Part shown: positions 6,500-58,381 of the stretch, piece after piece
How the letters are laid out: each line of letters begins with the position of its first letter
How positions within the stretch are numbered: position 1 is the stretch's first letter
Source of the DNA: an uncultured Anaerolineales bacterium
GTDB lineage: Bacteria; Chloroflexota; Anaerolineae; CG2-30-64-16
Direction of reading: 5' to 3'
Assembly: GCA_964588925.1 (NCBI GenBank)
Contig: CAZPTI010000004.1
Coordinates: forward strand, 633-64,632
Length of the DNA stretch: 64,000 nt
Made by a program: the position numbers and the translations under genes
Notes under the pieces: model-generated
The model's input: the letters and a program-made list of their open reading frames with translations, nothing else
What the model was told of the DNA's origin: nothing
The model's database searches: none

Positions 6500-6526
6500 C
6501 CCGTCGAAAGAAGGGAGCGGACGATC

Positions 6527-9527: not shown

Positions 9528-9896
9528 ATGGCAACGGCGGAAGAGCGGATGCGCATTCTCAAGATGATCTCGGACAAGCAAATCACGGCGGAGGAAGGCG
9601 CGCGGCTGCTCGAAGCGTTGCGATCCGGTGGAGTTGCGTCGCGGGACGATGCGAGCCGCCCAAAATGGCTGCGCGTAAAGGTCACTGACCGCCGCAGCGA
9701 GAAGGTCAAGCTGAACGTGACGATACCCGTGGGGCTGGTCGATGTGGGCCTGAAGATGGGCGCGCGCTTTGCGCCCGAGCTCGCCGGCATGGACAGCAAC
9801 GCGATTCAGTCTGCCCTGCGCGAGGGCGTCCGCGGCCGTATCCTCAGCGTGGATGACGACGGGGACGAGGAACGCGTCGAGATTTTTGTCGAGTAG
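9528..9896 (+). CDS. SHOCT-like / YvlB-LiaX N-terminal domain protein
   Basis: 122 aa. MRILKMISDKQITAEEGARLLEAL repeats the motif at the C-terminus of the 6916..8424 product. AGGAG RBS. Confidence 0.75.
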   Translation: MATAEERMRILKMISDKQITAEEGARLLEALRSGGVASRDDASRPKWLRVKVTDRRSEKVKLNVTIPVGLVDVGLKMGARFAPELAGMDSNAIQSALREGVRGRILSVDDDGDEERVEIFVE

Positions 9897-18863: not shown

Positions 18864-18878
18864 TTCGGAATTGCAGCC

Positions 18879-26115: not shown

Positions 26116-26125
26116 GGCCGCCTCC

Positions 26126-42329: not shown

Positions 42330-43094
42330 TCAGCGCGCTACCGGCGCACGCTGCAAGTCGCCCTCGATCTTGCCGAGAAATGCCGCAATCCACGCATCCT
42401 TAACCGTTCCCCCCGTGACCCGCAGCCAGTCCCCTTTTTCCGTTCGCCCCGTCACCGTGAACTGATCGCCCGCCGCGGCGGTTGCCACGCGCGCGTAACT
42501 CGTCCCGGGCCCACCGCGCAGGTTCGCATCGCGGGTCACGGTGAGACGGACAGCCTGTCGCGCGGCCTCCAGGCTCTCCGGCAGCGCGTGCGCCTCCGCG
42601 GAACCCGGCGCGCGCGTAGCCACGTCTAGTTTCGCGCGACAGAACGCCGCGCGCGCGGCGACCTCGTCGAACGGCCCCTTGTCCAGGTTGTTGATGCCTT
42701 TAAGCGCAAATGATGCCAGATCCTGACAACCGCTGAGCGCCGCGATGACGGCCTCGTGCTTCTTGCGCTGGCTGTCGGGCGGAGCCAGCCCTTCAAGCTG
42801 CCTGTAGCCGAGATCCGCCAGCGTCGCCGCGTTGACGACCTCCTCGCGCCAGCCGTCGTCAAGGTAGCGCGGCTCCGCCAGCAGTCCTAACACCCGTTCG
42901 AGCGCTTGATCGACCGCGCGGACCGCGGCATTCATCTGTAACGCAAACGTCTCCGGCGAGGTGGTCGGTCGGGTCATTACGAGCGATGAGGCCGGCATTG
43001 CGCCGATCTCTCCTGCGCAGCCGGCCAGCAACAACAGCAAGCCCTCCGTCGTCGCCACCAGCGTGGCCCGCAACTTCCTCATACCAAACCCCAT
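42330..43094 (-). CDS. lipoprotein with C-terminal bacterial SH3 domain
   Basis: Lipobox LLLLAGC. The C-terminus ANLRGGPGTSYARVATAAAGDQFTVTGRTEKGDWLRV is SH3b-like. Confidence 0.7.
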   Translation of the reverse strand: MGFGMRKLRATLVATTEGLLLLLAGCAGEIGAMPASSLVMTRPTTSPETFALQMNAAVRAVDQALERVLGLLAEPRYLDDGWREEVVNAATLADLGYRQLEGLAPPDSQRKKHEAVIAALSGCQDLASFALKGINNLDKGPFDEVAARAAFCRAKLDVATRAPGSAEAHALPESLEAARQAVRLTVTRDANLRGGPGTSYARVATAAAGDQFTVTGRTEKGDWLRVTGGTVKDAWIAAFLGKIEGDLQRAPVAR

Positions 43095-44072: not shown

Positions 44073-47000
44073 ATGCGCTGGAGGAAGACAACACATCTCA
44101 TCGTCCTGGTCAGCGTTGCGCTGTCGCTGTTGATGAGCGGCAGCGCAACCGCGGCTGTTCAGCGTCCGGAGCCCGGCGGCGGTCAGGTGACAAGGTACGC
44201 CGAGAAGGTCGAGAAGATCAAGACGAAGAAGGAGCAGCGGCTTAAGCAAAAGGATCGCGATGCCGCAGCCGCTCGCGCCTTGCAGAAAGGCGCGCTAAAC
44301 CCGTTGATGCGGGGCACGAAGTCGGGAATGCCGAAGGGCGCGGATGCGGTCGCGCTGGCCGCGGTGGCGCCGCACTACTTCAGCCATCCGAACTACGCCA
44401 ACAGTCCCCTGCCGACCGTGTCGCAGGACGCGCCGCTGGCATACGGCAACGCGCCGCTCGCAGCGGCCGCAGCCAGCGATACGGTGAACACCTTCGTCGT
44501 CCTTACCGCGGCCCCGCTGCTGGCTGACCTGCCAGGAACCGACGGCTACCTGACCGCGTTCGAGGTCTGGAATCAGCCGTTGACCGCCGGCGTCGCGTCC
44601 GCGGGGAAGCAATTCCACGCATACGTCCTTCGCCCTACTGCCGTCGCCGACCTCTACACGGTCGTCTTTGACAGCGGCTTGTTAACCGTGCCGCCGCTCG
44701 TTAATCCGGCGGGCGATCTGGTCACATATGCCGTGGCAAACCTGCCGGTCAAAAAGGGTGACGTGCTGGCATTCTACGGCCAGGGTGTTCCTGTATCGAC
44801 CGGCTCCGGCACGGACTGGGTGAGTGTCCCGCCGGTTAACGCGCCCCCGCTGCAAGACTCGGTCATTGAATTGGGCGGCAAGGTATACCCGGCCAACGGT
44901 GGCGCGCGGACCTACTCGTTCCGCGGCCAGGTGCTCGATGCAGACGCGGTCACCGTCACGGGCGGCATCCGCAAGTTTGTAGATGGGCTGCCCGGCCTGA
45001 CCTCCGCCGGCGCAAACAACCTCGGCCAGTATGTCTCGGTCGCTACGGCTGACACCGCGGCCTACAGCGGCTCCGACTATTACGAGATCGGCCTGGTGCA
45101 GTATCGCGAGAAGATGCACTCAGACCTGCCCCCCACCTTGCTGCGCGGCTACGTGCAGCTTGCGGGCAAGACGCCGTGCGCGGCCGAGACGGTCGAGCTG
45201 TTCAACGCGCCGCTTGACCCGAACGCGCCCCCCGCCTCCACCGGCTGGTGCGGTGTCGACAACCCGCACTATCTCGGCGCGACCATTGCGGCCACCAGGG
45301 ATCGCCCCGTGCGCATCCTCTTCCGCAACCTGCTCCCCACCGGCGCGGGCGGCAACCTCTTCATCCCGACCGACATCACGGTCATGGGCGCTGGCATGGG
45401 GCCCTCGATGTGGGGCATGCCGGAGACAGACCCGCAGGAGCCCACCTGCGGCCTCGATCCTAAGCCCGCAGGCTGCTACACCGAGAACCGCGCGGTGCTG
45501 CACCTGCACGGCGGGCGCACTCCGTGGATCAGCGACGGGACGCCGCACCAGTGGATTTCCCCCTTCGGCGAGCGCCCGCATCTGACTGACAACGGCTCGC
45601 CGCTGGAGAACAAGGGCGATAGCGTGTCTTACGTGCCCGACATGTGGTACGATGCGAGCGGCAATATGATCGCAAGCTGCGCGGGCCAAACGACCTGCGC
45701 GGTGGCCGGCGCGACGAACTACCCCGGCGAGGGCTCCCAAACCTACTACTACACCAACCAGCAGAGTGCGCGTTTGCTCTTCTACCACGACCACGCCTGG
45801 GGCATTACGCGCCTCAACGTGTATGCAGGCGAGGCCGCGGGTTACCTGATCGCGGACGACGTGGAGCAGATGCTGCTCGATCAGGGCATCCTCCCGCCCG
45901 CGGACGACACCATCCCGCTCGTGATCCAGGACAAGACGTTCGTGCCGAGCGCGGAGCAGCTTGCGGCGACCGACGAGACGTGGGACAGCGCGAAATGGGG
46001 CGGCGAAGGTAACCTCTGGCTGCCGCACGTCTACTCCCCTGCGCAGAATCCCGGCGACAGCTCCGGTGTCAACCAGTACGGCCGCTGGGCCTACGGCCCG
46101 TGGTTCTGGCCGCCTACGAACAACATCCTCTACCCGCCGGTCGCCAACCCGTACTACGAGGCGGACTGCGATCCCGAGGAGACGTGGTGCGAGCCGCCGC
46201 AGATGCCGGGCACGCCCTTCAATTCGATGGGCATGGAGGCGTTCCACGACACGCCCCTGGTGAACGGCACCGCGTATCCGACCATCACAGTCGACCCGAA
46301 AGCCTACCGTTTCCGGGTGTTGAACGCGGCCAGTGACCGGTTCCTCAACCTGTCGCTCTACACCGCGGTCGACGCGGACGGGGTGCCCTGTGATGCGGAG
46401 AATCCCAATCCCGCGCCGGAGAGCACGGGCGTGGCCTGCACTGAGGCGCCGCTGAACCCGGACGAGGTCGCGGCGGCGCTCGCCGATTCGACCATCTTCC
46501 CGACCCCGCTTGCCGGAACCGAGGGCCCGGACTGGATTCAGTTCGGCACCGAAGGCGGCTTCTTGCCCGCACCCGTCGCCATTCCGGCGCAACCCACCAC
46601 GTGGGTCAACGACCCGACCGTGTTCAACGCCGGCAACGTCGACCTGCACTCGCTGCTGCTCGGACCGGCCGAACGCGCGGACGCGGTGGTCGACTTCTCA
46701 GCGTTTGCCGGCCACACCCTGATCTTGTACAACGATGCGCCCGCGGCCTTCCCGGCCCGCGACCCGCGCTATGACTATTACACGGGCAACGGGGACTATC
46801 GTGACACCGGCGGCGCACCGTCAACGCTGCGCGGCTATGGCCCGAACATCCGCACCGTCATGCAGATCAAGGTCGCGGCCGTGACCCCCGCCCTTGCTTA
46901 CGACGTAGCCGCGCTGGAAGACGCGTTCAAGTCCAAGAGCCTCGGCGGCCTGGGCGTGTTCGAGGACGGGCAGGACCCCATCATCGTCGGCCAGGGCGCG

Positions 47001-48698
47001 TACAACTCGACCTACGGTGCGACCTTCCAGGTCAACGGCCCCGATGCCGGCCTGGTCCAGATCTTCGACACGAGCTTCACCTTCAAGACCCTCTCTGGCG
47101 GCGCGAACGGGCCTTCGATAACTATGCCGATGCAGCCGAAGCAGATCCAGGATGAGATGGGTGAGGCGTTCGATCACGACTACGGCCGCATGAGCGGTTT
47201 CCTCGGCGTGGAGTCGCCCAACCCGCAGGCCGGCGTGCAGAACATGATCCTGTACCCGTACGTCAACCCGGTCAGCGAACTGATCGACATGACGAACCTG
47301 CCGCTGGGCGACGCGCCCGTTGTTACGCCGATTGCGTCGGCGAGCGACGGTACGCAGATCTGGAAGATCACGCACAATGGCGTGGACACCCATCCAATCC
47401 ACTTCCACCTCTACGACGTGCAGTTGATCAATCGGGTCGGCTGGGATGGCATTATCCGCAAGCCCGACTCGAACGAACTCGGCTGGAAGGACACCGTCCG
47501 CATCAGCCCGCTCGAAGACACGGTCGTCGCGCTGCGGCCCGTCCGTCCCGTGGCCCCCTTCGACCTGCCGAACAGCGTCCGCCGCCTGAACCCGGCGCAG
47601 CCGCTCGGCTCACAGCTTGGCTTCAATAATCAGGACCTGTTCGGCGAGCCGACTTCGCCCATCACGAACGACATCGTGAACTTCGGATGGGAGTACGTCT
47701 GGCACTGCCATATCCTGAGCCATGAAGAGATGGACATGATGCGCCCCCAGGCGGCAGCTGTGCCACCGCGGGCGCCGAGCGCGCTTACGCCGACGCAGGT
47801 TGCGGAGGGCGTGGACCTGACCTGGGCCGACAACTCGAAGAACGAGACCAGCTTCGTCGTGCAGCGGGCGGCTGCCGCCGACGGCCCGTGGACTGACCTC
47901 GCCACGCTCGCGCCGAATATCAGCGCGTATTTAGACGCCACGGCGATTGTCGGACAAACCTACTTCTACCAGGTTGTCGCCTACAACAAGGCCGGCTATG
48001 CGGGTCCCGCCGCGCAGCCGGGCGCGTACCCCACGCTGACTGTGTCAAGCCTGTCCAACGTAGCGCAGATCACGTTGGACGCGCCGCCGCCCGCCGCGCC
48101 CGACAACCTGACGGCTACAGCGCAGGACGGCCCCGCGGTCCTGCTGGCGTGGAACGACAACGCCACAACGGAAACCGGCTTCATCGTGCAGCGGTGCGCG
48201 GGCGCGGACTGCATCAACTTCGCCGATATCGCGGCGCCCGGCGCATCTGCCGGAACCGGCCCGGTGAACTACACCGATACCAATGTAACCCCCGGCGCAA
48301 CCTATCGCTATCAGGTCGCCGCAGTCAACTCGGGCGGGCAGTCTGCGTGGTCCAACATCGCATCGGTCTATGTCCCGAATCCGCCGGCCCCGCCCATCAA
48401 TGCGGTCGTGGCCTGCCGGCGCGTCGGCACATCCGCCCGGTGCGCCGTGACGTTCACCGACAACTCAACCAACGAAACTGGCTTCACCGTCCAGCGATCC
48501 CGCAACCCCAGCTTCGTCGGTGGCGGGTTCACCAGCGTGAACCTCCCCGCGCGCGCTGGCACAGGCGCGCTGATCACCTGGGAGCCGGGCACGAACCTGC
48601 CGCGGAACACGGACCACTACTTCCGTGTCCGCTCCTTCAACGCAGACGGGACGTCGGTCTGGGTTAACGCCCAGCCGTTCCCGATTCGGACGCCGTAG
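44073..48698 (+). CDS. giant secreted multicopper oxidase with three C-terminal Fn3 domains
   Basis: 1541 aa. Signal peptide. All four MCO copper motifs are present: LHLHGG (about residue 477), YHDHA (about 571), HPIHFHL (about 1106), WHCHILSHEEMDMM (about 1211). Three W-DNS/T-NETGF-VQR Fn3 units at the C-terminus. Confidence 0.9.
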   Translation: MRWRKTTHLIVLVSVALSLLMSGSATAAVQRPEPGGGQVTRYAEKVEKIKTKKEQRLKQKDRDAAAARALQKGALNPLMRGTKSGMPKGADAVALAAVAPHYFSHPNYANSPLPTVSQDAPLAYGNAPLAAAAASDTVNTFVVLTAAPLLADLPGTDGYLTAFEVWNQPLTAGVASAGKQFHAYVLRPTAVADLYTVVFDSGLLTVPPLVNPAGDLVTYAVANLPVKKGDVLAFYGQGVPVSTGSGTDWVSVPPVNAPPLQDSVIELGGKVYPANGGARTYSFRGQVLDADAVTVTGGIRKFVDGLPGLTSAGANNLGQYVSVATADTAAYSGSDYYEIGLVQYREKMHSDLPPTLLRGYVQLAGKTPCAAETVELFNAPLDPNAPPASTGWCGVDNPHYLGATIAATRDRPVRILFRNLLPTGAGGNLFIPTDITVMGAGMGPSMWGMPETDPQEPTCGLDPKPAGCYTENRAVLHLHGGRTPWISDGTPHQWISPFGERPHLTDNGSPLENKGDSVSYVPDMWYDASGNMIASCAGQTTCAVAGATNYPGEGSQTYYYTNQQSARLLFYHDHAWGITRLNVYAGEAAGYLIADDVEQMLLDQGILPPADDTIPLVIQDKTFVPSAEQLAATDETWDSAKWGGEGNLWLPHVYSPAQNPGDSSGVNQYGRWAYGPWFWPPTNNILYPPVANPYYEADCDPEETWCEPPQMPGTPFNSMGMEAFHDTPLVNGTAYPTITVDPKAYRFRVLNAASDRFLNLSLYTAVDADGVPCDAENPNPAPESTGVACTEAPLNPDEVAAALADSTIFPTPLAGTEGPDWIQFGTEGGFLPAPVAIPAQPTTWVNDPTVFNAGNVDLHSLLLGPAERADAVVDFSAFAGHTLILYNDAPAAFPARDPRYDYYTGNGDYRDTGGAPSTLRGYGPNIRTVMQIKVAAVTPALAYDVAALEDAFKSKSLGGLGVFEDGQDPIIVGQGAYNSTYGATFQVNGPDAGLVQIFDTSFTFKTLSGGANGPSITMPMQPKQIQDEMGEAFDHDYGRMSGFLGVESPNPQAGVQNMILYPYVNPVSELIDMTNLPLGDAPVVTPIASASDGTQIWKITHNGVDTHPIHFHLYDVQLINRVGWDGIIRKPDSNELGWKDTVRISPLEDTVVALRPVRPVAPFDLPNSVRRLNPAQPLGSQLGFNNQDLFGEPTSPITNDIVNFGWEYVWHCHILSHEEMDMMRPQAAAVPPRAPSALTPTQVAEGVDLTWADNSKNETSFVVQRAAAADGPWTDLATLAPNISAYLDATAIVGQTYFYQVVAYNKAGYAGPAAQPGAYPTLTVSSLSNVAQITLDAPPPAAPDNLTATAQDGPAVLLAWNDNATTETGFIVQRCAGADCINFADIAAPGASAGTGPVNYTDTNVTPGATYRYQVAAVNSGGQSAWSNIASVYVPNPPAPPINAVVACRRVGTSARCAVTFTDNSTNETGFTVQRSRNPSFVGGGFTSVNLPARAGTGALITWEPGTNLPRNTDHYFRVRSFNADGTSVWVNAQPFPIRTP

Positions 48699-48713
48699 CT
48701 GTAACGGCTGGCC

Positions 48714-48751
48714 GAGACAGGGGGAGGGCAAACTCTCCCTCCCCCTGTCTC
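48714..48751 (+). terminator. 15-bp perfect hairpin after the MCO gene (attenuator/terminator candidate)
   Basis: GAGACAGGGGGAGGG-CAAACTCT-CCCTCCCCCTGTCTC. No T-tract. Confidence 0.5.
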
Positions 48752-48777
48752 TCACACTACGCGGGTGATCGTGCGCA

Positions 48778-49470
48778 ATGGCGGGACACAAGACAATCCG
48801 GCTAATCGCATCCCTTCTGGCGCTCGCCGCGCTTCTTGCGCTGACCCGCGCAACGCGGGCTGTGGCCGCACCCGACTTGACCACCGGCGTTGTCTACAGC
48901 CAGCCTCCCAAATCCAGCGGGGGTGTCTTGCTGTCATCCCTGCGCGACCCCGATGGCAGCGCCACTGACCAGTGGGTCTGGGACGGGTTCATCTTTTCTT
49001 CCGCGCAGACCATCACCGAGATACGGTGGCGCGGCGCATACGACCCGAGTCGTTTTGGCTCGGGCGGTCGCGTATTCGACTTTGTCGTCGACATTTACCC
49101 TTCCAACGCGAACGGATCGCAACCGGACGTCGCGCACCCGCCCCTTGCGCATTACGAAGTGGGCGGCAACGCGGGCGAGGTCGCGGCAGACGTTTTGGCC
49201 GGGGTCCAAACATACGATTATCGTTTTGCGTTGCCTGCGCCGTTTGAGGCCGCAGGTCAGAAGAAATACTGGGTGCAGATCGAGGCGTATCAGGCCGGCG
49301 CGCCCGATTGGGGCCTTTCCTCCGCGGCCGGCGGTGACGGCTATTACTTTCGCCGCATCCCGGGCCAGGGTGCGAACTACCAGCTTCTTGCCGGCGACGC
49401 GGCGTTCTCCCTGCTCGGCCCGCGCCCCGACGACCGTAAGGTCTACCTGCCGGTGTCTCTCTCATCGTAG
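48778..49470 (+). CDS. secreted protein, uncharacterised domain (paralog 1)
   Basis: 230 aa. Signal peptide. Blocks QPPKSSGG, RWRGAYDP, GVQTYDYRFALPAPFEAA and YWVQIEAYQAGAPDWG are shared with the next gene. Confidence 0.8.
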   Translation: MAGHKTIRLIASLLALAALLALTRATRAVAAPDLTTGVVYSQPPKSSGGVLLSSLRDPDGSATDQWVWDGFIFSSAQTITEIRWRGAYDPSRFGSGGRVFDFVVDIYPSNANGSQPDVAHPPLAHYEVGGNAGEVAADVLAGVQTYDYRFALPAPFEAAGQKKYWVQIEAYQAGAPDWGLSSAAGGDGYYFRRIPGQGANYQLLAGDAAFSLLGPRPDDRKVYLPVSLSS

Positions 49471-49484
49471 CATCAGGAGGGGTG

Positions 49485-50591
49485 ATGGTTTCCAGGGTTT
49501 TGCGTGTGATCGCGTTGCTTGTGTTGGCTCTTGCCGTGGTTTCGTGCAAGGGCGACAGGCCGCGCGAAGCAACGTCGAAAGCCGCGCTGGAGAGCGCCTC
49601 GCAGCCGCGTACTCCTGTTGCGGCTGAAGCCGCGGCAACCCCGACTGTTGCGCTGCCCGCGGTCGCGCTGCGGCAACCACCCAAGTCGAATGGCGGCATC
49701 ATCCCGTCTGCCTGGCGGCAACCCGAAGGGAGCGCACGCGACCGGTCGGTGTGGGACAACTTCCTGTTTGAAACCCCGCACACGCTTACCGAAGTCCGTT
49801 GGCGCGGCGCGTATGACCCTGCAAACCAGGGCGCGGGCGGTCCAGTGGTGAACTTCACGGTCGACATCTATGGTTCCATCCCCACCGGCAGCGAGCCGAA
49901 CCTCGCCGAAGCGCCCCTGGTTCACTACGTCGTGGGCGACAACGCGGGGGAGCAGCCCGCGGAGAAGGTGCGCGGCGTCCAGACCTACGAGTACCGCTAC
50001 GCTCTGCCGCAGCCGTTCGAGGCCGCCGCGCTCAAGTCCTACTGGGTGCAGATCGTCGCGTTTCAGAACGGCGACCCCGATTGGGGCTTCGCGGTCGGCT
50101 CGCTGGGCGACGGCCGGCATTTCCGAATAAGCGGCGCGGCCGGCGAGGGTTACTACCATCAACTCGCGCCAGACGACGTAGCGCTGGAGCTGGTCGCCCT
50201 CGGCGAGGGCGTCCCGACCCCGGCCCCTGATGTCGCGCGTTCGCTCGAGGAGATCGAGCAGCAGATGGCGAACCTGCCGCCGTCGGAGGAAATCCCCGTC
50301 AACGCGCAGGGGGTGCAGGAGGTCATGCTCGTCGTCTCTCGCAGCGGCTACACCCCCGTCCACTTCTCGGTAAAGGTCGGCGTGCCCGTCAAACTCACCT
50401 TCCGGCAGCTCGGCTACGTGCCCGGCGGCAACGAGTTGAACGTTCGGTGGGGTCCGCAGGAAATGACGTACATCATGCTCTCTTCGATCACCGACAAGAA
50501 GGTGCTGGAGTTTACGCCCAGGTTGCCCGGCGATTATCGCTTTAGCTGCCCGCACGAATGGTACTGGGGTGTCATGGCCGTGCGAGAGTAG
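49485..50591 (+). CDS. lipoprotein: same uncharacterised domain (paralog 2) plus C-terminal cupredoxin-like domain
   Basis: AGGAGG RBS. Lipobox-like LAVVSC. Blocks QPPKSNGG, RWRGAYDP, GVQTYEYRYALPQPFEAA, YWVQIVAFQNGDPDWG. The C-terminus (YTPVHFSVKVGVPVKLTF...GDYRFSCPHEWYWGVMAV) resembles the small cupredoxin_1 fold. Confidence 0.8.
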   Translation: MVSRVLRVIALLVLALAVVSCKGDRPREATSKAALESASQPRTPVAAEAAATPTVALPAVALRQPPKSNGGIIPSAWRQPEGSARDRSVWDNFLFETPHTLTEVRWRGAYDPANQGAGGPVVNFTVDIYGSIPTGSEPNLAEAPLVHYVVGDNAGEQPAEKVRGVQTYEYRYALPQPFEAAALKSYWVQIVAFQNGDPDWGFAVGSLGDGRHFRISGAAGEGYYHQLAPDDVALELVALGEGVPTPAPDVARSLEEIEQQMANLPPSEEIPVNAQGVQEVMLVVSRSGYTPVHFSVKVGVPVKLTFRQLGYVPGGNELNVRWGPQEMTYIMLSSITDKKVLEFTPRLPGDYRFSCPHEWYWGVMAVRE

Positions 50592-50629
50592 CTCCGGTTG
50601 ATCGCCCACTCATATCATGGAGGAAGCAG

Positions 50630-51064
50630 ATGCATAAGTTCTTTGGCGCTGTAATGGTTCTTCTCGCGCTGGCGCTGGCAATCGCGCCGATCTTCACTGA
50701 TTGCGAGTCGCACGGCAAGATGCTGACCACGGCGGACGGCCGCAGCATCTCGATGAAGTGTCATTGGGCGGGCATCGCCGAAATTGCGTCCGCTGTTCCG
50801 CTGGGCCTGGCGGGCATCGCCGCGCTCCGCGCGCGGCGCAAGGAGACGCTGCGCTTTGCGGGCATCGTCGGCGCGGCTGCGGCCGCGATGGCCCTCCTCA
50901 TCCCGACCGTCCTGATCGGCACGTGCGCAAATCCCATGATGGTCTGCAATCTGCTCATGAAGCCCACGCTGCTCGCTTCGGGCATCCTCGCGATCATCGC
51001 CAGCCTCGCGCTGATCGTCGTCGCCCGCGAGCCGAAGCCGGCGTTCGTCGGAGCAGCCGCATGA
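50630..51064 (+). CDS. DUF4418-like Cys-rich small membrane protein
   Basis: 144 aa, 4 TM. CHW motif (SMKCHWAG) plus TDCESHG and CANPMMVC. GGAGGA RBS. Family assignment is from memory. Confidence 0.75.
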   Translation: MHKFFGAVMVLLALALAIAPIFTDCESHGKMLTTADGRSISMKCHWAGIAEIASAVPLGLAGIAALRARRKETLRFAGIVGAAAAAMALLIPTVLIGTCANPMMVCNLLMKPTLLASGILAIIASLALIVVAREPKPAFVGAAA

Positions 51065-52254
51065 GCCTGTTGCAGCTTGCCTGGAAGAGCATTTCGGGCA
51101 ACGGGCTGCGCAGTTGGGTCGTGGCCCTGGCCGCCCTCGTGGTCGCCGCGTTCGCACTGTTCGGCACGCTGCTGCTGCGTGGCGCGGCGACGAGCCTCGA
51201 ATTGGCTGCGGAGCGCCTCGGCGCGGACATCGTGGTCGTGCCAGAGAGCGCGCAGACCGCGATGGAGGGCGCGCTGCTCATGGGTTCGCCCGCCAGCTTC
51301 TGGATGCCAGCCGAAAACGTCGCGGAGCTAGCCACCGTGCCCGGTGTCGAAGCGGTGTCGCCGCAGGTGTATCTCGCCACCCTCGTGGGAGCTGCCTGCT
51401 GCTCCGCATCTGAGATGTTTATGGTCGCATACGATCCCGAAAGCGACTTCACGATCCGACCCTGGCTGGAAGAGCGCATGCCCTCTGGCCTCGGGCCGGG
51501 CGAGGTCATCGGCGGCGACTATATCTCGGCCACCGAGGGGAAGGACGGCATCCTCGTCTACGGCAGCCTCGTCAGGCTCAAGGGCAACCTTGAGCCGACA
51601 GGCAGCGGCCTTGATCAGACCCTCTTCTTCACGATGGACACCGCGCAGCAACTCGCGGTCAGCTCGTTTGTCGAGGCCGAGGAGCCGCTCGTCATCCCCC
51701 AGGGGCAGGTGTCTGCCGTCCTGATCAAGCTCGCGCCCGGCGCGGACGCGGAGAAGGTGGCGGTTGACATCCTGCGCACCGTGCCCGGCGTCTTTCCCAT
51801 CGAAAGCGCCAACCTGTTCCAGTCCTCGCGCGCCCAGCTTAACAGCCTGCTCAACACGGTCGTTATCCTGATGGCGCTGATTTGGCCGCTCGCGATCGTG
51901 CTGATCGGCATGGTCTACCTGATGGCGGCCAACGAGCGCCGCCGCGAGCTGGGCATGCTACGCGCGCTCGGCGCCACCCGGGGCTTCATCGCGCGGTCGC
52001 TACTTGTCGAGGCCGGTCTGCTGGCGTTCATCGGCGCAGCCATCGGCCTGTTTCTCGCCGCGCTGGCAATCTATCTCTTCCGCCGGCTGATTATGACCTC
52101 GCTGGGCGTCCCGTTCCTCCTGCCGTCGCCCGGCGCGTTAGCCGTTCAGATCGGCGTCGGGCTGCTGCTCGCAATGGCGAGCGTGTTCCTCGCCGCGCTG
52201 CTGCCGGCCATCAAGGTAAGCCGCCAGGACCCGGCTGTCGCGATGCGGGAGTAG
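51061..52254 (+). CDS. ABC transporter permease, FtsX/MacB type
   Basis: 397 aa. ATGA overlap with the upstream stop. N-terminal TM, extracytoplasmic domain, 3 C-terminal TM with RELGMLRALGA. Confidence 0.9.
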   Translation: MSLLQLAWKSISGNGLRSWVVALAALVVAAFALFGTLLLRGAATSLELAAERLGADIVVVPESAQTAMEGALLMGSPASFWMPAENVAELATVPGVEAVSPQVYLATLVGAACCSASEMFMVAYDPESDFTIRPWLEERMPSGLGPGEVIGGDYISATEGKDGILVYGSLVRLKGNLEPTGSGLDQTLFFTMDTAQQLAVSSFVEAEEPLVIPQGQVSAVLIKLAPGADAEKVAVDILRTVPGVFPIESANLFQSSRAQLNSLLNTVVILMALIWPLAIVLIGMVYLMAANERRRELGMLRALGATRGFIARSLLVEAGLLAFIGAAIGLFLAALAIYLFRRLIMTSLGVPFLLPSPGALAVQIGVGLLLAMASVFLAALLPAIKVSRQDPAVAMRE

Positions 52255-52259
52255 TGGCG

Positions 52260-52985
52260 ATGGCGAGCATCGCAATGCAAGGCAACGTTATGATCAAGCT
52301 GGAAAGCGCTTCCAAGACATACGATCTGGGCAAGGGCGCGTTCGTCACCGCAGCGCGCGACGTAAGCCTGGAGATCGCCGGGGGTGAGTTCGCGGTCATC
52401 GTCGGCCGCTCCGGTTCAGGCAAAACCACCGTGCTCAACCTGGCCGCGGGACTCACGCGCCCCACCTCCGGCCGCATCATGCTGGACGGAGTCGACCTGT
52501 GGAAGCTCACCGACGAGCAGCAGTCCGCGCTGCGGAACCAGAAGATCGGCTTCGTCTTCCAGTTCCCCAGCCTCCTTCCGACACTCACCGTGTTGGAGAA
52601 CGTCTTCTTGCCGACCACATTCGGCAGGAACGGCGCGCGTCGAGACGCGCGCAGCCGCGCGGCTGACTTGCTCGAACAGGTCGGGCTGTCCGACAAGCTG
52701 AACGTCTACCCGCGGCAGCTATCCGCCGGCCAGCAGCAGCGCGTCGTCATCGCGCGTTCGCTCATCAACCGGCCGCAGATCCTGTTGGCCGACGAGCCGA
52801 CGAGCAACCTGGACGAGCGGACCGAGACCGAAATCATCGCTTTGTTCCGCGGGCTGCACGTCAGCCTTGGCGTAACCGTCCTGCTCGTGACGCACACGCG
52901 CCAGCTTGTGTCGACGGGGATGCGCGCAATCGAGATGGCCGAGGGTCGTATAGTGGAAGCCATGCCGGCTCCCGCAATGGCCTGA
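52260..52985 (+). CDS. ABC transporter ATP-binding protein
   Basis: Walker A GRSGSGKTT, signature LSAGQQQRVVIARSL, Walker B ILLADEPT. Alternative start at ATG 52290. Confidence 0.9.
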   Translation: MASIAMQGNVMIKLESASKTYDLGKGAFVTAARDVSLEIAGGEFAVIVGRSGSGKTTVLNLAAGLTRPTSGRIMLDGVDLWKLTDEQQSALRNQKIGFVFQFPSLLPTLTVLENVFLPTTFGRNGARRDARSRAADLLEQVGLSDKLNVYPRQLSAGQQQRVVIARSLINRPQILLADEPTSNLDERTETEIIALFRGLHVSLGVTVLLVTHTRQLVSTGMRAIEMAEGRIVEAMPAPAMA

Positions 52986-53056
52986 CGGTCAACACAGGCG
53001 CGTCCATGTCACGCGGGCCGGCTGACCGTGAGAAATACCGGATAGTGGAGTGCTTT

Positions 53057-55486
53057 ATGAACCCGTCCAGCGTTTTTCGGAGGCGGTTTGAACCGTTTCG
53101 TCTCCGGCCAGGCAAAGTCCTGCTCGTCGCGATCCTGCTGCTCGTCGTCGCAGGCAACGCCGTCGCGGCCGTCCCGTCTGCCGTAACCCCCGTCGATGGT
53201 CGCGGCGCAGAGGCACGCGGTCCCCGTCTCATCGTCGAGAATGTCGGCCAGTTTGCGCCCGAGGCGCGTTTCACCCTTGCGCACGGCAAGCAGCGTATCT
53301 GGCTGACCGACGACGCCATCTGGCTCGTCTCCTCCGCCCCGAGCTCGGACGCGAAACAGAACGCGCCGCGCGCTGCGTCTGCCGCGCAAACCGCCACGGC
53401 CTGGCGCTTCACCTTCCCCGGCGCGAACCCCGCCGCGCAGCCTCAGCCGTTCGGACGCTCGAACGCTCACGTCTCTTACTTTATCGGCAACGATCCGGCG
53501 CGTTGGCGGTCGGATGCGCCTGTATGGTCGGGCGTGCGCTATCGCGACCTTTACCCCGGCGTCGATCTCATCGTCGGCGACAATGCGGCCGGGCTTGTTC
53601 CCTGGCGCCTGGAGGCGCGACCGGGCGCGAATCTGGCGGCCGTGGCGCTGAAAGTCGAAGGTTCTGAAGTTACCGCGGCCGCGGGACAACTGCGTCTCGA
53701 AGGCCACGGCCAAACAGTTGACCTGCTCGCGCCCACATGGGCCATAGCAGGGCAGCGTGACCTGCTCGCCAGTAGTGTGTCCGTTCAGCCCGGCGCGATC
53801 ACCCTTGCGCCCGCGGCCGCCCTATCTGTCGATCTGCTTGTCCCCGCAGCAACGCCTGACGCAGGCGACCTGGTCTACAGCCGATTGACGGGCGGTTCCG
53901 CGCTCGACGCAGGCTATGGGATCGCGGTCGACTACGCAGGCAACGCCTACGTGACCGGCGAGGTCGCGTCGAGCAACTTCCCCGTGGTCGCGGGCAGCTA
54001 CGACACGACCTATGGCGGCTCCACCGATGCGTTTGTCGCTAAGTACAACTCCGGCGCAACGTCGCTCGTCTACGCAACTTATCTCGGCGGCTCCAGCCTC
54101 GACCTCGGCTTTGGCGTCGCGGTCAACGGCAGCCTGGCCTATGTCGTGGGCGAAACCAGCTCGACGAACTTCCCCGGCACGAGCGGGTCGAGCGGCGAGA
54201 GCGACATCTTTGTCGTCAGCCTGAACGCGACCGGCTCGGCCATGCGCTACACCACGCTGATCGGCGGGGCAGACTACGATATGGCCGGCGGCATTGCCCT
54301 CTGGGGGCCGGATGCCTATATTGTCGGCAGCACCGACTCCTCCAACCTCAGCGGCAGCGGTTGCGCGGGGATCGCCTCGCGTGACCTGGTAGTGGCGCGG
54401 CTCGGCGCGACCGGGATGCCTGTGTACACCCGCTGCTTTGGCGGCAGCGACCTCGACGCGGGCTACGGGATCGATGTTGCCAATGAGGTCGCCTATGTCA
54501 CTGGCGAAAGCTGGTCGCCCGATATAGTTCCTCCCGCGCCGCTCACAGGCGAAAACGACGTTCTCGTCGCGACGTTCACCGACAACGGCAGCTTGCAGGA
54601 CGTGGCGCTTATCGGCGGGGGCCAGGGAGACCAGGGCAACGGGATCGCGGCCGATGTGGATGCGAATGGCAACGGCTATATCTATGTTGTCGGCACGACA
54701 TCGTCTGATAGTTTTCCGCTCGCAGTCGGCTCCGGCCCCGACCCTGATGAAACGGACGCTGTCGTCCTGCGCGTCGGGCTCGAAATGTTTGCCCACGACT
54801 TTGCGGCCTACCTCGGCGGCAGCAGCGACGATGATGGCCGCGCCATCGCCGTGGACACCGTCGGTGGGTTATACGTCACGGGTTCCACGTTGTCAACCGA
54901 TTTCCCCACCACCGCGGGCGCCTACGACACCACGCAGAACCAGCGCACCGACGCGTTCGTCGCGCGCATGCACCTGAACAGCGCGGCCACGAACAGGGTG
55001 ACTTACGCCACTTATCTGGGCGGCAAAGGGGATGACACGGGTTACGGCGCGGCGACGGACACGGGCGGACACGCATTCGTGGCTGGCTCAAGTGGAGGGC
55101 AGGGCTTCCCCACCACAGTGGGTCCGTCACCCGCAGGGGACAGCGATTCGTTTGCGGCGAAGCTAAAAGTCAGCCAGCCGCCCGCCGCGCCCGTCGTAGC
55201 CATTGCGGCCAGCGGTTCCGATGCCAAACTAACCTGGCCCACAGTGTCCGGCGCGGTTAAGTATCAGGTGTTTCGCGGCCCTGCGCCCTACTTCAAGCCG
55301 GGCGACTGGGGGAGCGCGCTCTTGCTTCCGGAGCCAGTTACCGGCGAGTATCTTGATGTTGACGCGCTGGCGCAGCTCGACGGCTACTTCTATGAGGTGA
55401 AGTCCGTCAGCGCTGCGCCGGAACATGCCAGCGCCAGCTCAAACGGCGTGGGCAAGTTCGTCTTTCAACTGCAAAGGGGCAACTAA
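53057..55486 (+). CDS. secreted SBBP beta-propeller-repeat protein with C-terminal Fn3-like module
   Basis: Signal anchor. Seven or more repeats of the DxGxGIAVDxxGNxYVTGxTxSxxFP type. C-terminal KLTWPTVSGAVKYQVFRGPAPYF...VGKFVFQLQRGN. Confidence 0.85.
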   Translation: MNPSSVFRRRFEPFRLRPGKVLLVAILLLVVAGNAVAAVPSAVTPVDGRGAEARGPRLIVENVGQFAPEARFTLAHGKQRIWLTDDAIWLVSSAPSSDAKQNAPRAASAAQTATAWRFTFPGANPAAQPQPFGRSNAHVSYFIGNDPARWRSDAPVWSGVRYRDLYPGVDLIVGDNAAGLVPWRLEARPGANLAAVALKVEGSEVTAAAGQLRLEGHGQTVDLLAPTWAIAGQRDLLASSVSVQPGAITLAPAAALSVDLLVPAATPDAGDLVYSRLTGGSALDAGYGIAVDYAGNAYVTGEVASSNFPVVAGSYDTTYGGSTDAFVAKYNSGATSLVYATYLGGSSLDLGFGVAVNGSLAYVVGETSSTNFPGTSGSSGESDIFVVSLNATGSAMRYTTLIGGADYDMAGGIALWGPDAYIVGSTDSSNLSGSGCAGIASRDLVVARLGATGMPVYTRCFGGSDLDAGYGIDVANEVAYVTGESWSPDIVPPAPLTGENDVLVATFTDNGSLQDVALIGGGQGDQGNGIAADVDANGNGYIYVVGTTSSDSFPLAVGSGPDPDETDAVVLRVGLEMFAHDFAAYLGGSSDDDGRAIAVDTVGGLYVTGSTLSTDFPTTAGAYDTTQNQRTDAFVARMHLNSAATNRVTYATYLGGKGDDTGYGAATDTGGHAFVAGSSGGQGFPTTVGPSPAGDSDSFAAKLKVSQPPAAPVVAIAASGSDAKLTWPTVSGAVKYQVFRGPAPYFKPGDWGSALLLPEPVTGEYLDVDALAQLDGYFYEVKSVSAAPEHASASSNGVGKFVFQLQRGN

Positions 55487-55509
55487 AGCACCCACCACCT
55501 CGCGTTGCT

Positions 55510-55537
55510 GCCGGAGCGTTCAGCGCGACGCTCCGGC
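55510..55537 (+). terminator. hairpin terminator candidate
   Basis: GCCGGAGCGT-TCAGCGCG-ACGCTCCGGC, then a T/C-rich tail. Confidence 0.5.
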
Positions 55538-55612
55538 GCTTCCTTTCCTCCCTATCTCCCGCTTCATTCCGACCTGCCATCAGCAAGCAGTTGTGCGTTT
55601 GCGCGCAGAGAC

Positions 55613-55793: not shown

Positions 55794-56429
55794 ATGCCGA
55801 TTCGCGTGCTAATCGTTGATGATCACGGGGTTGTCCGCCAGGGCTTGCGCATGTACCTGAGCCTGGAAGGGGATGTCGAGATTGTTGGGGAGGGGCGTAA
55901 CGGTGAGGAGGCGCTGGCGCTGGCGCAAAGGCTGAAGCCAGATGTAGTGCTGATGGATCTGTTAATGCCTGTGATGGACGGCATCAAGGCTACAGCAGCC
56001 ATCCGGCGGGAAATGCCCGATGTCGAAGTGATTGCTCTAACGAGTGTTCTTGAAGATGCCGCGGTGGCCGAAGCCGTGCGCGTCGGCGCGGTCGGCTACT
56101 TACTTAAGGACACGGAATCGGCGGAATTAATCCGGGCGATTCGCGCGGCCGCCTCCGGCCAGGTCTACCTCACCCCGGTCGCGCTCGAGCGCTTAATGCG
56201 CGACGTCGGCGCGCCGCAATCCCTGCAAGAACCCCTGACCGCACGCGAGATTGACGTTCTCCGGTTGCTTGCGCAAGGACGCTCCAACAGAGAGATCTCC
56301 AAAGCGCTTTCTATAACCGACCAGACGGTCAAGTCCCACGTGAGTCATATCTTGGGGAAACTTGGCGTCTGCAGCCGGACTCAGGCTGCGCTGTATGCCA
56401 TTGAAGCAGGCCTCACACATGGCCGATAA
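55794..56429 (+). CDS. NarL/LuxR-family response regulator
   Basis: REC (VLIVDDH, VVLMDLLMP) plus LuxR HTH (LTAREIDVLRLLAQGRSNREISKALSITDQTVKSHV). Confidence 0.95.
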   Translation: MPIRVLIVDDHGVVRQGLRMYLSLEGDVEIVGEGRNGEEALALAQRLKPDVVLMDLLMPVMDGIKATAAIRREMPDVEVIALTSVLEDAAVAEAVRVGAVGYLLKDTESAELIRAIRAAASGQVYLTPVALERLMRDVGAPQSLQEPLTAREIDVLRLLAQGRSNREISKALSITDQTVKSHVSHILGKLGVCSRTQAALYAIEAGLTHGR

Positions 56430-58110
56430 ACCCTGGCCTGTGGCCTCAGCCCCTGAGACTCAAGGCATCAACGAACTCCTTGAAACCGCCTCAAACGAGC
56501 GGTTCTGGGTTCGAATTGGCGTGCCGTTCGCGCTGGCGGCCGGTTTCTTGCTGCTGGATCTGTTCCTCCACGAAGTTCTGGGGCCTGCATGGCGCAGTGT
56601 AACTCACTACCTGATGGCTGCGCTGCTGCTCGGAACCTCCTTTTTCGTCGTCTCCATCCACCAACGTACCGTTGCGCAACGCTCTGCCGCCCGGACGCTC
56701 CTGTTGGCGCGTGAGGAGAGCTATCGCACGCTTTTCGATATCTTCCCGGAGCCGACGACCGTCTGGAGTGGAGATGGAGTTCTTCTGCTCCAGAATCTTG
56801 TCTCCGCGCGCAACATGGGCGGCAGCCGTGAGACTTACGTCGGCAAAACGATCGTGGAGATGTTCGGGCCGGAGGCAGGGCTCGGTTACCTGGAGCGCAT
56901 CCAACGTGTCTATCGGACCGGCATAAGCGAGCAGCAGGAGGACGAGGTCGAGCTGCCGACCGGTGACCGGCGCCACTTTTCGACTTCAATGCAGCGCGTG
57001 CGTCAGCCCAACGGTGCGCATGCGGTGCAGGTCATCTCTTACGACATTACGGAGCGAGTCAAAGCGGAGCGCGCCTGGCGGGCCGAACATGAGCGCGCTT
57101 CGATGTATCTCGACATCGCGGCAGTCATGATCGTTGCTCTGGACAGGGACTACCATGTGACGCTAATAAACGCGCGGGGCTCCGAAGTGCTGGGCCGAAG
57201 TGAGTCGGAGATAGTCGGCAGAGACTGGTTCTCGGAATTCCTGCCCGAGCGCCTGCGCGAACAAATGCGCAGCGCTTTCGATCGTGTGATGGCGGGCCAA
57301 CAAGACATTGGGGGAACCTTTGACATTCCCGTCCTGGCGGCCTCAGGCGAAGAACGTGTGATCGCATGGCGAATCGTGGTCGTGCGGAATGAGGCGGACG
57401 AAGTTGTGGGGGCTTTGAGTTCGGGAGAGGACATTACAGACCGCCTGCGAGCGGAGGAAGCCCTTCGTAACTGGGAAATCCTGCGCGCGCAGGAGCGCAC
57501 CGCGCTCGAGGAACGCCAACGTCTTGCGCGGGAACTGCATGACTCCGTATCGCAAGCCCTTTATGGCATCGGGTTGGGCGTCAATACGGCTTTAATGACA
57601 CTTGATCGGGACATGCGAATGACGCGCGAGGCGCTCGAATATGCGCTTGGCCTGGCGCGGGCAGGACTGAGCGAGATGCGCGCGCTGATTCTCGAATTGC
57701 GGCCGGAGTCGCTTGAGTCCGAAGGTCTGGTGGCTGCGTTATCTAAGCAAGTCGAAGCGGTTCGCGCCCGATTTGAGTTGCCGGTTGACCTCCGCGCATG
57801 CGAAGAGCCAGCCCTGTCTATGTCGGCAAAAGAGACCCTTTACCGTATTGCGCAAGAAGCTTTACATAATGTCGTGCGGCATGCGCAGGCGCGCGAGTTG
57901 CGAGTCGCGTTGTCTTGTGAAGATGGCTTCGTAATCCTCGAGATATGTGATGACGGCATCGGCTTCGACGTTAAGGAGCAGTACCCGGGCCATCTGGGAT
58001 TGAAATCGATGCGCGAGCGGGCCAACAACCTGGGCGGCGCTTTGCGGATCCAAAGCGCGCCTGGCAATGGAACCTTGATTGAAGCGCGCGTTCCGATCGA
58101 AGCAAATTGA
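56419..58110 (+). CDS. sensor histidine kinase (2 TM, two PAS domains, HisKA_3, HATPase_c)
   Basis: H-box LARELHDSVSQALYGI, N-box QEALHNVVRHA, G-box DDGIGF. ATG at 56419 overlaps the response-regulator stop. Confidence 0.9.
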   Translation: MADKPWPVASAPETQGINELLETASNERFWVRIGVPFALAAGFLLLDLFLHEVLGPAWRSVTHYLMAALLLGTSFFVVSIHQRTVAQRSAARTLLLAREESYRTLFDIFPEPTTVWSGDGVLLLQNLVSARNMGGSRETYVGKTIVEMFGPEAGLGYLERIQRVYRTGISEQQEDEVELPTGDRRHFSTSMQRVRQPNGAHAVQVISYDITERVKAERAWRAEHERASMYLDIAAVMIVALDRDYHVTLINARGSEVLGRSESEIVGRDWFSEFLPERLREQMRSAFDRVMAGQQDIGGTFDIPVLAASGEERVIAWRIVVVRNEADEVVGALSSGEDITDRLRAEEALRNWEILRAQERTALEERQRLARELHDSVSQALYGIGLGVNTALMTLDRDMRMTREALEYALGLARAGLSEMRALILELRPESLESEGLVAALSKQVEAVRARFELPVDLRACEEPALSMSAKETLYRIAQEALHNVVRHAQARELRVALSCEDGFVILEICDDGIGFDVKEQYPGHLGLKSMRERANNLGGALRIQSAPGNGTLIEARVPIEAN

Positions 58111-58309: not shown

Positions 58310-58381
58310 TGGCGACGGACAGACTTGAACTGTCGACCCAGCGATTATGAGCCGCTTGCTCTGCCACTGAGCTACGTCGCC
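58310..58381 (-). tRNA. tRNA with anticodon CAT (elongator Met, or Ile2 if lysidinylated)
   Basis: Hand-folded 72-nt cloverleaf: GGCGACG acceptor, loop CTCATAA, T arm GACAG-TTCAAGT-CTGTC. The normal 1-72 pair means it is not an initiator. Confidence 0.85.

Follow-up and report, generated by a model that had tools for sequence, protein, structure and literature searches.

How enzymes folding outside the cytoplasmic membrane obtain their copper is not well understood, above all for bacteria that lack a periplasm. Multicopper oxidases (MCOs) with dedicated copper-handling partners are an already known kind of system, represented by pco/cop, cutFOG and, by analogy, nos. We analysed a 64,000-nucleotide (nt) stretch of DNA from an uncultured Anaerolineales bacterium, here called the window; all coordinates without a locus label refer to it. 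The island under study (44073-55486, + strand) encodes a giant secreted MCO of 1541 amino acids (aa) and six further proteins: g2 and g3 with the domain DUF7901, to which g3 adds a cupredoxin tail, the DUF4418 membrane protein g4, the FtsX permease g5, the ATP-binding cassette (ABC) ATPase g6 and the beta-propeller protein g7. Our preferred reading, held tentatively and somewhat short of an even chance, is that a giant surface MCO may be served here by an ATP-powered extracytoplasmic copper relay, with loading of the cofactor as the favoured purpose. Labels such as L081 or L128 denote related genome and metagenome loci.

The lipoprotein NosL and the ABC complex NosDFY are implicated in the assembly of the copper centres of NosZ (PMC8457098, PMC7558416). 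The likeness to the window is one of analogy only: an extracytoplasmic copper enzyme lies beside an ABC pair and a putative copper lipoprotein (g3), and in the loci L082-L084 a polyferredoxin of the NapH/NosH type is added. No component is homologous: the permease is of the MacB/FtsX type and not an ABC-2 permease like NosY, the cupredoxin is of the CupA type and not NosL, and the target is an MCO. The families of the NosD beta-helix, NosY and NosL were not detected in g2-g7 with Pfam and NCBIfam.

CupA is the membrane-anchored Cu(I) chaperone of Streptococcus pneumoniae, and CupA and CopA-MBD are copper-resistance proteins (PMC7558416). The tail of g3 resembles them in its modelled fold, a sister family homologous to them carries Cys...Cys-x-His-x-Met in the ligand columns, and g3 is predicted to be membrane-tethered like CupA. 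CupA, however, lies on the cytoplasmic side and delivers to a P-type ATPase, whereas g3 is predicted to lie outside, as a lipoprotein or with an N-in anchor, and is tied to an ABC system and an MCO. Neither the cytoplasmic location of CupA nor delivery to a P1B-type ATPase was found here: g3 has a lipoprotein signal and the window contains no P-type ATPase.

The pco/cop operons (PcoA, PcoC, PcoRS) bring together an MCO, a small copper carrier of the beta-barrel type and a two-component system, as does the window, and the sister loci treated below share with them Met-rich CueO-like MCOs. In contrast, PcoB, PcoD and PcoE are absent here, the regulator is of the NarL type with a PAS kinase and not of the OmpR type, and ABC and DUF4418 genes are present instead. 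Membership in pco/cop is not indicated by the MCO either, which contains 1.6% Met and has no copper_res_A match, and no PcoB or PcoD homologue was found. For cutFOG of Rhodobacter capsulatus, the small Sec-exported factor CutF was proposed as copper chaperone for the assembly of CutO; its deletion drastically lowers CutO activity according to unpublished data mentioned in the review PMC7558416, and an intergenic region containing a stem-loop is important for expression (PMC7558416). This stem-loop recalls the conserved hairpin behind the window MCO, but CutF and CutG are unrelated to g2-g7 and an ABC transporter is missing from cutFOG.

Geobacter sulfurreducens OmpB and Leptothrix MofA are homologous; both are large extracellular MCOs that contain Fn3 domains and have a cytochrome of the mofC kind as neighbour (PMC5566968). 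The window MCO shares with them a length above 1300 aa, a secretion signal, Fn3 and the four copper motifs. Partners such as DUF7901, DUF4418 and FtsX/ABC are, however, not reported for the ompB or mofA clusters, and genes like mofB or mofC are missing from the window. Finally, g5 and g6 resemble MacB, LolCDE/LolF, FtsEX and YtrF in having an FtsX permease with four transmembrane helices, a large outer domain between the first and the second helix and a separate ATPase similar to LolD and FtsE. They differ from these systems in an outer domain with a conserved Cys-Cys...Met motif and with no relative detectable by sequence in the PDB, and in the obligatory partner DUF4418. None of the MacB-type systems characterised so far is known to have a DUF4418 partner.

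In the literature searched we came across no work on DUF7901, a single passing mention of DUF4418 and no account of an MCO associated with FtsX/MacB and a cupredoxin. A reading of this DNA made from its letters alone (the sequence-only reading) had not recognised the gene combination as a described system, and no description of it was found in that literature. New are the components and their architecture: a CupA-type cupredoxin predicted to face outward, DUF4418 and a MacB-type ABC system with vicinal cysteines.

Linkage of the module to multicopper oxidases

A metagenome scan seeded with DUF4418 yielded 80 loci. FtsX follows DUF4418 directly in 46 of the 48 testable loci, and a gene with the cupredoxin tail directly precedes it in 20 of 34. 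An MCO was located within 10 kb in 11 of the 13 cupredoxin-carrying loci of at least 8 kb; the two loci without MCO offer only 2.4-3.1 kb of flank on each side. This linkage recurs with DUF4418 identity down to 46%, and the oxidases concerned belong to at least four non-orthologous classes, namely giant Sec-type enzymes, Tat-type CotA-like enzymes of 704 aa, Tat-type Met-rich CueO-like enzymes (516-563 aa, 6.5-7.5% Met; CueO is their best NCBIfam match with 259-277 bits) and a 505-aa enzyme with the type-1 (T1) motif in its N-terminal domain. In the loci of the sister family, whose MCOs are not orthologs of the window enzyme, the order is MCO or MCOs, cupredoxin protein, DUF4418, FtsX and ABC.

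Because of the recurrent linkage across loci, we regard the cupredoxin-tail protein, DUF4418, FtsX and ABC as the conserved unit and the MCO as its partner. A functional link between the MCO and these genes had been suggested by the sequence-only reading; it is backed by the synteny of close relatives and by the occurrence of the module beside non-orthologous MCOs in many metagenome loci. The cupredoxin tail accompanies DUF4418-FtsX-ABC whatever the class of the MCO, and the N-terminal domain of the cupredoxin protein tracks this class: DUF7901 is found with giant MCOs (nine of nine) and an alternative domain of 200 aa with small ones. Tail and DUF7901 are fused in g3, which looks like an adaptor joined to a module-facing tail.

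Several of these loci contain additional genes. Two or three tandem MCO genes lie upstream of one cupredoxin-DUF4418-FtsX-ABC set in L128 (4111-8059) and L142 (44-6649); they encode Tat-type 704-aa CotA-like and Tat-type Met-rich CueO-like enzymes, and in L142 also a giant Fn3-bearing MCO. The NapH/NosH-type membrane polyferredoxin (L082 18713-19600, L083 15344-16246, L084 15488-16390), with two CX3CP and two 4Fe-4S motifs, lies next to a second DUF4418 paralog and an unknown protein of 203 aa; the window lacks this polyferredoxin. In L156 a matrixin-like peptidase (3337-4101) and a PrsA/SurA-like peptidyl-prolyl isomerase (PPIase, 7951-8928) flank a DUF4352-DUF4418-FtsX-ABC set downstream of a giant MCO. 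This PPIase recalls MofB of the mofA operons (PMC5566968).

The family of the giant MCO is large and well conserved, with more than 4046 matching database proteins, many of them 55-75% identical over 80-100% of the length, and at least 550 loci in species-level genomes of Chloroflexota, Actinomycetota and Desulfobacterota. Members with 46-50% identity occur in genomes of Geobacter, Geomonas and Citrifermentans. Neighbourhoods were surveyed for the best 80 of the at least 550 genome loci, 60 of which extend at least 6 kb downstream of the MCO. Among these 60, and likewise among all 80, DUF7901 was found in four, DUF4418/FtsX in one and SBBP in none. The block had been presented as a single eight-gene unit; as a unit co-conserved across the MCO family it is ruled out by this rarity. 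Chloroflexota account for 18 of the 60 loci, and every locus positive for DUF7901 or DUF4418/FtsX is among these 18. The only recurrent neighbours in the 80 best loci are histidine kinases (39), NarL-type regulators (22) and OmpR-type regulators (21). Giant MCOs normally work without the partners of the module.

Close relatives keep more of the block. L081 and L082, with MCOs 71-74% identical to that of the window, contain the whole set in shuffled order (receiver, MCO, DUF7901-cupredoxin, DUF4418, FtsX, ABC, DUF7901, DUF7948/SBBP), and L083 and L084, with g3 proteins of 46-47% identity, keep the set minus the SBBP gene. Tail-less DUF7901 proteins beside giant MCOs without ABC module were observed in L024, L036 and L071. 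A gene of the type of g7, which itself matches Pfam DUF7948 with E=7.6e-27 and SBBP with E=8.2e-25, stands at the cluster end only in L081 and L082 and is absent from the 80 genome and 80 metagenome loci. Kept only in the closest relatives, g7 is peripheral; g2 and g7 are regarded as lineage-specific add-ons, g7 as a beta-propeller surface protein. Large secreted beta-propeller proteins not homologous to g7 adjoin DUF4418-FtsX-ABC elsewhere: LVIVD proteins in L010 (6580-8559) and L096 (72-1097), and a CARDB/PD40/dockerin protein of 2297 aa in L154 (12592-19482).

The giant oxidase and the proteins of the module

The giant MCO consists of a Sec-type signal without twin-arginine (RR) motif, an N-terminal domain conserved across the family (about residues 90-300; about 240 aa), a CotA-like three-domain core (about residues 334-1230) with large insertions and three Fn3 repeats. 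Comparison with CotA (1GSK) by phmmer gave E=1.4e-33 with seven colinear segments over CotA residues 25-509, covering all three domains. The four copper motifs recognised before are indeed complete and could be mapped to H477-x-H479, H572-x-H574, H1107-xx-H1110-x-H1112 and H1211-C1212-H1213-x3-H1217-x4-M1222, with M1222 as axial Met; their residues are invariant in an alignment of 14 sequences. By sequence, the enzyme is assigned to the three-domain MCOs of the CotA/bilirubin oxidase/PhsA branch. It is not an ortholog of PhsA or CueO, because both NCBIfam scores are far below the equivalog cutoffs.

Other details of the earlier description had to be adjusted. The N-terminal part ahead of the CotA-alignable core comprises about 330 aa and not about 400 aa. 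The long segment between motifs 2 and 3 exists (533 aa), but it consists of the normal domain 2 of CotA plus insertions. One of the three Fn3 domains is above the Pfam cutoff; the other two are visible only as repeats of the type 'LTW.DN..NET.F.VQR'. The N-terminal domain (residues 85-330) was also considered as a copy of DUF7901 and rejected (hhalign probability 0.1%). A locally Met-rich loop, V-M-G-A-G-M-G-P-S-M-W-G-M (residues 437-449), is largely conserved in the giant family (consensus TVMGSGMGPxMxGM) and could be a Cu(I)- or substrate-binding loop.

The size class of OmpB and MofA, to which the enzyme had been compared, is supported by its length, its Sec-type signal and Fn3. Membership in the OmpB/MofA group is likely from size, signal, Fn3 and neighbours, because dihaem cytochrome genes follow the MCO in eight relative loci (L005, L009, L019, L022, L035, L036, L053, L066). 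No mofC-like dihaem cytochrome, mofB (PPIase) or SCO1 gene is present in the window, and an ompB-like mofC neighbour was not found at the Citrifermentans locus L040.

Both g2 (33.8 bits) and g3 (32.3 bits) match DUF7901 (PF25470) above the gathering cutoff of 24. The two tandem proteins had been taken for paralogs of an unknown secreted domain; their paralogy is real (phmmer E=2.8e-62, 46% identity), but the domain is already named in Pfam. The AlphaFold2 (AF2) model of g2, with a predicted local distance difference test score (pLDDT) of 85.6, is an all-beta jelly-roll. Foldseek with the DUF7901 model returned generic jelly-roll or receptor-binding modules only (phage baseplate, PHR, CocE C-terminal domain). 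These models suggest for DUF7901 a binding domain of jelly-roll fold; its occurrence follows the giant class of MCOs.

In the AF2 model of g3 (pLDDT 84.3) the DUF7901 domain (residues 59-240) is followed by a linker helix and the cupredoxin tail (residues 279-368). The protein has the lipobox VVSC with Cys22 (residues being numbered from the GTG start), and this Cys is conserved to at least 90%; the tail should therefore face outward, unlike CupA. Pfam Cupredoxin_1 reaches 21 bits on g3, below the cutoff of 27. With the modelled tail, Foldseek identified CupA (4F2E, TM-score 0.87, root-mean-square deviation 2.6 Å), CopA-MBD (4F2F, TM-score 0.83) and the Cupredoxin_1 protein of B. anthracis (4HCF). 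Furthermore, over its last 100 aa g3 shares 53-61% identity with the tail of another family, one of 308-aa proteins and the sister family mentioned above. Its profile matches CopA-MBD 4F2F (E=2.4e-11) and CupA (E=1.6e-9), and its members fill all four CupA ligand columns (C254, C295, H297, M299). The cupredoxin-like tail noticed before is thus confirmed and is specifically CupA/CopA-MBD-like, which narrows the metal handling proposed by the sequence-only reading to copper handling. The binuclear Cu(I) site of CupA has the ligand set Cys...Cys-x-Met-x-Met. This set is not complete in g3, where the columns are occupied by Gly315, Cys356, His358 and Trp360. Within the g3 family, H294 is invariant and family-specific, and C356, H358 and M365 are conserved to at least 90%.

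The DUF4418 protein g4 (73.3 bits, cutoff 27) has four transmembrane helices and two outer loops, as read from hydrophobic stretches and the positive-inside rule. The predicted outer loops contain four conserved Cys as well as Met and His. Among 98 diverse representatives, C25, C44, C99 and C106 are conserved to 91-96% and M42 to 89%, all within these loops, and these positions are invariant among MCO-linked members. The family is small, with 386 representatives out of 1.84e9; its size and conservation were taken from an exhaustive search, as a word-indexed search gave only close relatives.

For g5, four transmembrane helices and an extracytoplasmic domain of about 225 aa between the first two were read from the sequence; Pfam FtsX covers residues 269-391. 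The outer domain carries the vicinal Cys113-Cys114 and Met119, which are conserved to 90%, 96% and 94% in 49 DUF4418-linked FtsX proteins. The nearest PDB sequences, Spr0695, LolF, FtsX, MacB and YtrF, match in the transmembrane region only; as to a periplasmic core domain of the MacB_PCD type, no Pfam or PDB sequence match covers residues about 40-200. The best NCBIfam matches of g6, LolD, FtsE, DevA and MacB, are all below the equivalog cutoffs. From the FtsX permease, the outer domain and the cognate ATPase, g5 and g6 are classified by sequence as a MacB-type (type VII) ABC transporter.

A candidate copper relay and its alternatives

The proposed system has two layers: a Sec-exported giant MCO that would be located at the surface, and an accessory operon behind a hairpin, the conserved core of which would be an extracytoplasmic copper relay. 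In this relay, g4 and the outer domain of g5 would bind Cu(I) at the outer face of the membrane via thiol and thioether sites. ATP hydrolysis by g6 would set the outer domain of g5 in motion by mechanotransmission, in the manner of MacB, LolCDE and FtsEX, and this movement would pass the metal to the CupA-type cupredoxin tail of the lipoprotein g3. The DUF7901 jelly-roll of g3 would dock on the giant oxidase and the metal would be handed over, most likely to fill the four copper sites of an MCO that would leave the cell unfolded and copper-free. Gene content, homologies, conserved Cys, His and Met positions and the recurrent linkage to several non-orthologous MCO classes were observed; it is predicted that g3, g4 and g5 bind copper, that the metal moves in the direction given, that ATP serves this transfer and that DUF7901 docks. 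The evidence for the relay is computational throughout, from comparative and structural inference.

Copper could be delivered as cofactor or as substrate, and for the window loading of the cofactor is favoured. As the Sec signal of the MCO has no RR motif, export as apo-protein would be expected, which favours loading. Loading is also favoured over detoxification because the enzyme is not Met-rich, because related loci add the NapH/NosH-type polyferredoxin (L082-L084) and once the PrsA-like PPIase (L156), and because assembly factors were proposed for other exported copper enzymes, NosL/NosDFY (PMC8457098) and CutF (PMC7558416).

Several observations weigh against the relay. Of the four ligand positions of CupA, the tail of the window protein retains just two (Cys356, His358), with Gly315 and Trp360 replacing the others. 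As 59 of the 60 genome loci with sufficient flank are without the module, it is not generally required for the maturation of giant MCOs. In the sister loci the most frequent partner is the Met-rich Tat-type CueO-like MCO, which speaks for Cu(I) detoxification. As a rule, MacB-type transporters serve resistance or efflux. The window was found to contain neither a copper exporter nor a copper sensor, and the conserved Cys of the module could be structural disulfides. DUF4418-FtsX-ABC was also found without nearby MCO, in L154, L162 and L140 and in Bifidobacterium longum (PMC7701253).

A wider generalisation of the relay is possible, although we would sooner expect it to fail: the cupredoxin lipoprotein, DUF4418, the Cys-Cys FtsX and ABC would form an independently evolved, ATP-powered copper-insertion machine for secreted MCOs, in which interchangeable N-terminal adaptors, DUF7901 or the 200-aa alternative domain, would select the client oxidase. 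Such a machine would be the MacB-type counterpart of the role proposed for NosDFY-NosL in the assembly of the copper centre of N2O reductase.

Copper detoxification is an unlikely but serious rival, because most giant MCOs are without the module, CueO-like enzymes are among its partners, modules without MCO exist and the CupA site is incomplete. The module would strip Cu(I) from the outer face or the wall, and the cupredoxin would hand it to the oxidase as substrate for conversion to Cu(II), which is less toxic, resembling CueO with CusF/CusCBA or PcoA with PcoC. This fits the homology of the tail to CupA and CopA-MBD, both copper-resistance proteins (PMC7558416), the Tat-type MCOs of the sister loci with 6.5-7.5% Met and CueO as best match, and the occurrence of the core module without MCO. 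The adjacent two-component system, as in pco/cop operons, the typical role of MacB-type ABC systems as resistance devices and the conserved Met-rich loop V437-M449 of the giant MCO agree with it as well. The window enzyme itself, however, contains 1.6% Met and belongs to the size class of OmpB/MofA rather than CueO/PcoA, and the tail has no bis-thiolate site. Furthermore, the kinase has cytoplasmic PAS domains and a NarL-type partner and is not a periplasmic sensor of the CusS/CopS type, no CopA, CopZ, CsoR or CopY gene is located nearby in the window, and the NapH/NosH-like polyferredoxin of related loci fits a supply of Cu(I) from Cu(II) better. If detoxification were true, a new type of copper-resistance determinant would have been found.

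It is distinctly unlikely that the module acts independently of copper, with DUF4418/FtsX/ABC activating, anchoring or releasing large surface proteins by mechanotransmission and the cysteines forming structural disulfides, on the model of FtsEX activating wall hydrolases and LolCDE releasing lipoproteins. Unrelated large secreted proteins do adjoin the module (window, L081 and L082: SBBP; L010 and L096: LVIVD; L154: CARDB/PD40/dockerin), g3 is predicted to be a lipoprotein, the best score of the ATPase is that for LolD, and some DUF4418 loci contain neither MCO nor cupredoxin. But the homology of the tail to Cu(I) chaperones, with ligand columns kept in the sister family, would be left unexplained, as would the vicinal Cys-Cys with Met and the MCO beside cupredoxin-carrying modules in 11 of 13 informative loci.

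An electron-transfer role of g3 is very unlikely. Its tail would contain a type-1-like blue copper site (His294, Cys356, His358, Met365) passing electrons from a membrane donor to the oxidase, which would place the latter in an extracellular respiratory or metal-redox chain. The exchange of Cys for Gly at the S1 position of CupA is indeed paired with the invariant His294 and the conserved Met365, suggesting a His-Cys-His-Met set; the polyferredoxin of L082-L084 is quinol-dehydrogenase-like, and OmpB/MofA relatives carry MofC-like dihaem cytochromes (PMC5566968). The C-x-H spacing is, however, unusual for type-1 copper sites, the ABC ATPase would have no role, and neither a polyferredoxin gene nor a dihaem cytochrome c next to the MCO was seen in the window. 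Chance adjacency, in which the MCO, set off by a hairpin of its own, and the ABC operon would be neighbouring but unrelated transcription units, would fit the strong hairpin between MCO and g2 and the many MCO relatives without module, but it is extremely improbable given that the linkage recurs at DUF4418 identity down to 46% and with four MCO classes, that synteny survives shuffling of the gene order and that the hairpin position is conserved in relatives keeping the linkage.

MCOs drive the oxidation of Mn, Fe, phenolics and copper in soils and sediments, and their biotechnological use suffers from incomplete loading with copper, which keeps down the yield of active enzyme. Should the copper relay be correct, a dedicated and transferable module for loading or handling would explain MCO maturation in uncultured Chloroflexota, and its co-expression could improve recombinant oxidases. 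DUF4418 and DUF7901 would receive their first functions. The mechanotransmission ABC family would be extended to metal trafficking, and under the wider generalisation a MacB-type transporter would for the first time take part in the assembly of a metalloenzyme.

Locus layout, regulation and neighbouring genes

The features of the locus are listed in Table 1. According to the list of open reading frames (ORFs), Pfam and NCBIfam, 44073-55486 contains seven ORFs, all on the + strand; the eight genes counted by the sequence-only reading are reached only if the orphan receiver upstream is included. Co-directional ORFs with their domains, this receiver and the LuxR-type two-component pair downstream are present as it had described them. 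The genes g2-g7 are tightly packed, with gaps of -4 to about 70 nt, and the 4-nt overlap of g4 and g5 suggests translational coupling. The spacer between MCO and g2, of 79 nt, contains the 15-bp GC hairpin.

Table 1 Features of the locus and hairpins behind the MCO gene in related loci
Feature	Position	Strand	Basis and remarks
Stand-alone receiver domain, 125 aa	43423..43800	+	Pfam Response_reg E=1.8e-10; directly upstream of MCO
Giant secreted MCO, 1541 aa	44073..48698	+	Pfam Cu-oxidase_2, fn3
15-bp GC-rich hairpin, boundary of MCO and accessory genes	48714..48751	+	Folding energy
g2, secreted stand-alone DUF7901 jelly-roll protein, 230 aa, Cys-free	48778..49470	+	Pfam
g3, predicted lipoprotein, DUF7901 and cupredoxin tail	49482..50591	+	Pfam, AF2; GTG start 49482
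g4, DUF4418 (PF14387) membrane protein	50630..51064	+	Pfam E=2.6e-20
g5, MacB-type FtsX permease, 397 aa	51061..52254	+	Pfam FtsX
g6, LolD/FtsE/MacB-type ABC ATPase	52260..52985; start perhaps 52290	+	Pfam ABC_tran E=1e-36
g7, secreted DUF7948 and SBBP beta-propeller protein, C-terminal Fn3-like domain	53057 (or 53006)..55486	+	Pfam
Terminator-like hairpin after g7	55509..55538	+	12-bp stem, 8 GC pairs, then CTTCCTTTCC
NarL/LuxR-type response regulator	55794..56429	+	Pfam
PAS-HisKA_3 histidine kinase	about 56419..58110	+	Pfam
Post-MCO hairpin, L081	about 14590-14640		
Post-MCO hairpin, L113	8723-8842		
Post-MCO hairpin, L117	8771-8873		
Post-MCO hairpin, L083	about 9630-9680		
Post-MCO hairpin, L010	about 6510-6600		

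Folding of the MCO-g2 intergenic region (85 nt) gave a minimum free energy of -44.6 kcal/mol (z=-5.1). A strong GC-rich hairpin right after the MCO stop was also found in L081, L083, L113, L117 and L010; the sequences differ, with a GGGAGG...CCTCCC core in common. It may be an attenuator or RNA-stability element setting the ratio of MCO to accessory proteins. The terminator-like hairpin behind g7 appears to close the accessory operon.

A receiver or response-regulator gene lies directly upstream of the MCO in L081, L082, L083, L084, L113, L128 and L131 as well. The acidic pocket of the window receiver is E9-N10 instead of D-D, orthologs vary at these positions (ES, ED, DE, DD), and the receiver of L113 has no phospho-acceptor Asp; from its sequence the stand-alone receiver may be a pseudo-receiver. 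The PAS-HisKA_3/NarL-type system also flanks MCO and module in L081, L083 and L128 and recurs even where the MCO class differs. The giant MCO is probably controlled by the adjacent NarL-type two-component system together with the stand-alone receiver.

Searched for further copper genes, the whole window yielded no other MCO, no polyferredoxin, no P-type ATPase and no additional cupredoxin, and the genes flanking the island belong to ordinary metabolism. On its left the island is bounded by a gene divergent from receiver and MCO (42330-43094, - strand), encoding a secreted or lipoprotein-like protein with C-terminal SH3_3; GlcD/GlcF-like and aldehyde dehydrogenase genes lie further to the left. 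Just downstream of the two-component system, a gene of the PD-(D/E)XK endonuclease family was identified (58372-58875, - strand; PDDEXK_5, E=1.8e-46). A second, unrelated MacB-type pair (23497-26863, - strand) comprises an FtsX-matching permease of 872 aa (phmmer E=1.5e-17) and an ABC ATPase. Between 16001 and 20000 the AT skew of 0.19-0.32 is far above the rest of the window and coincides with long minus-strand ORFs at 16720-20621.

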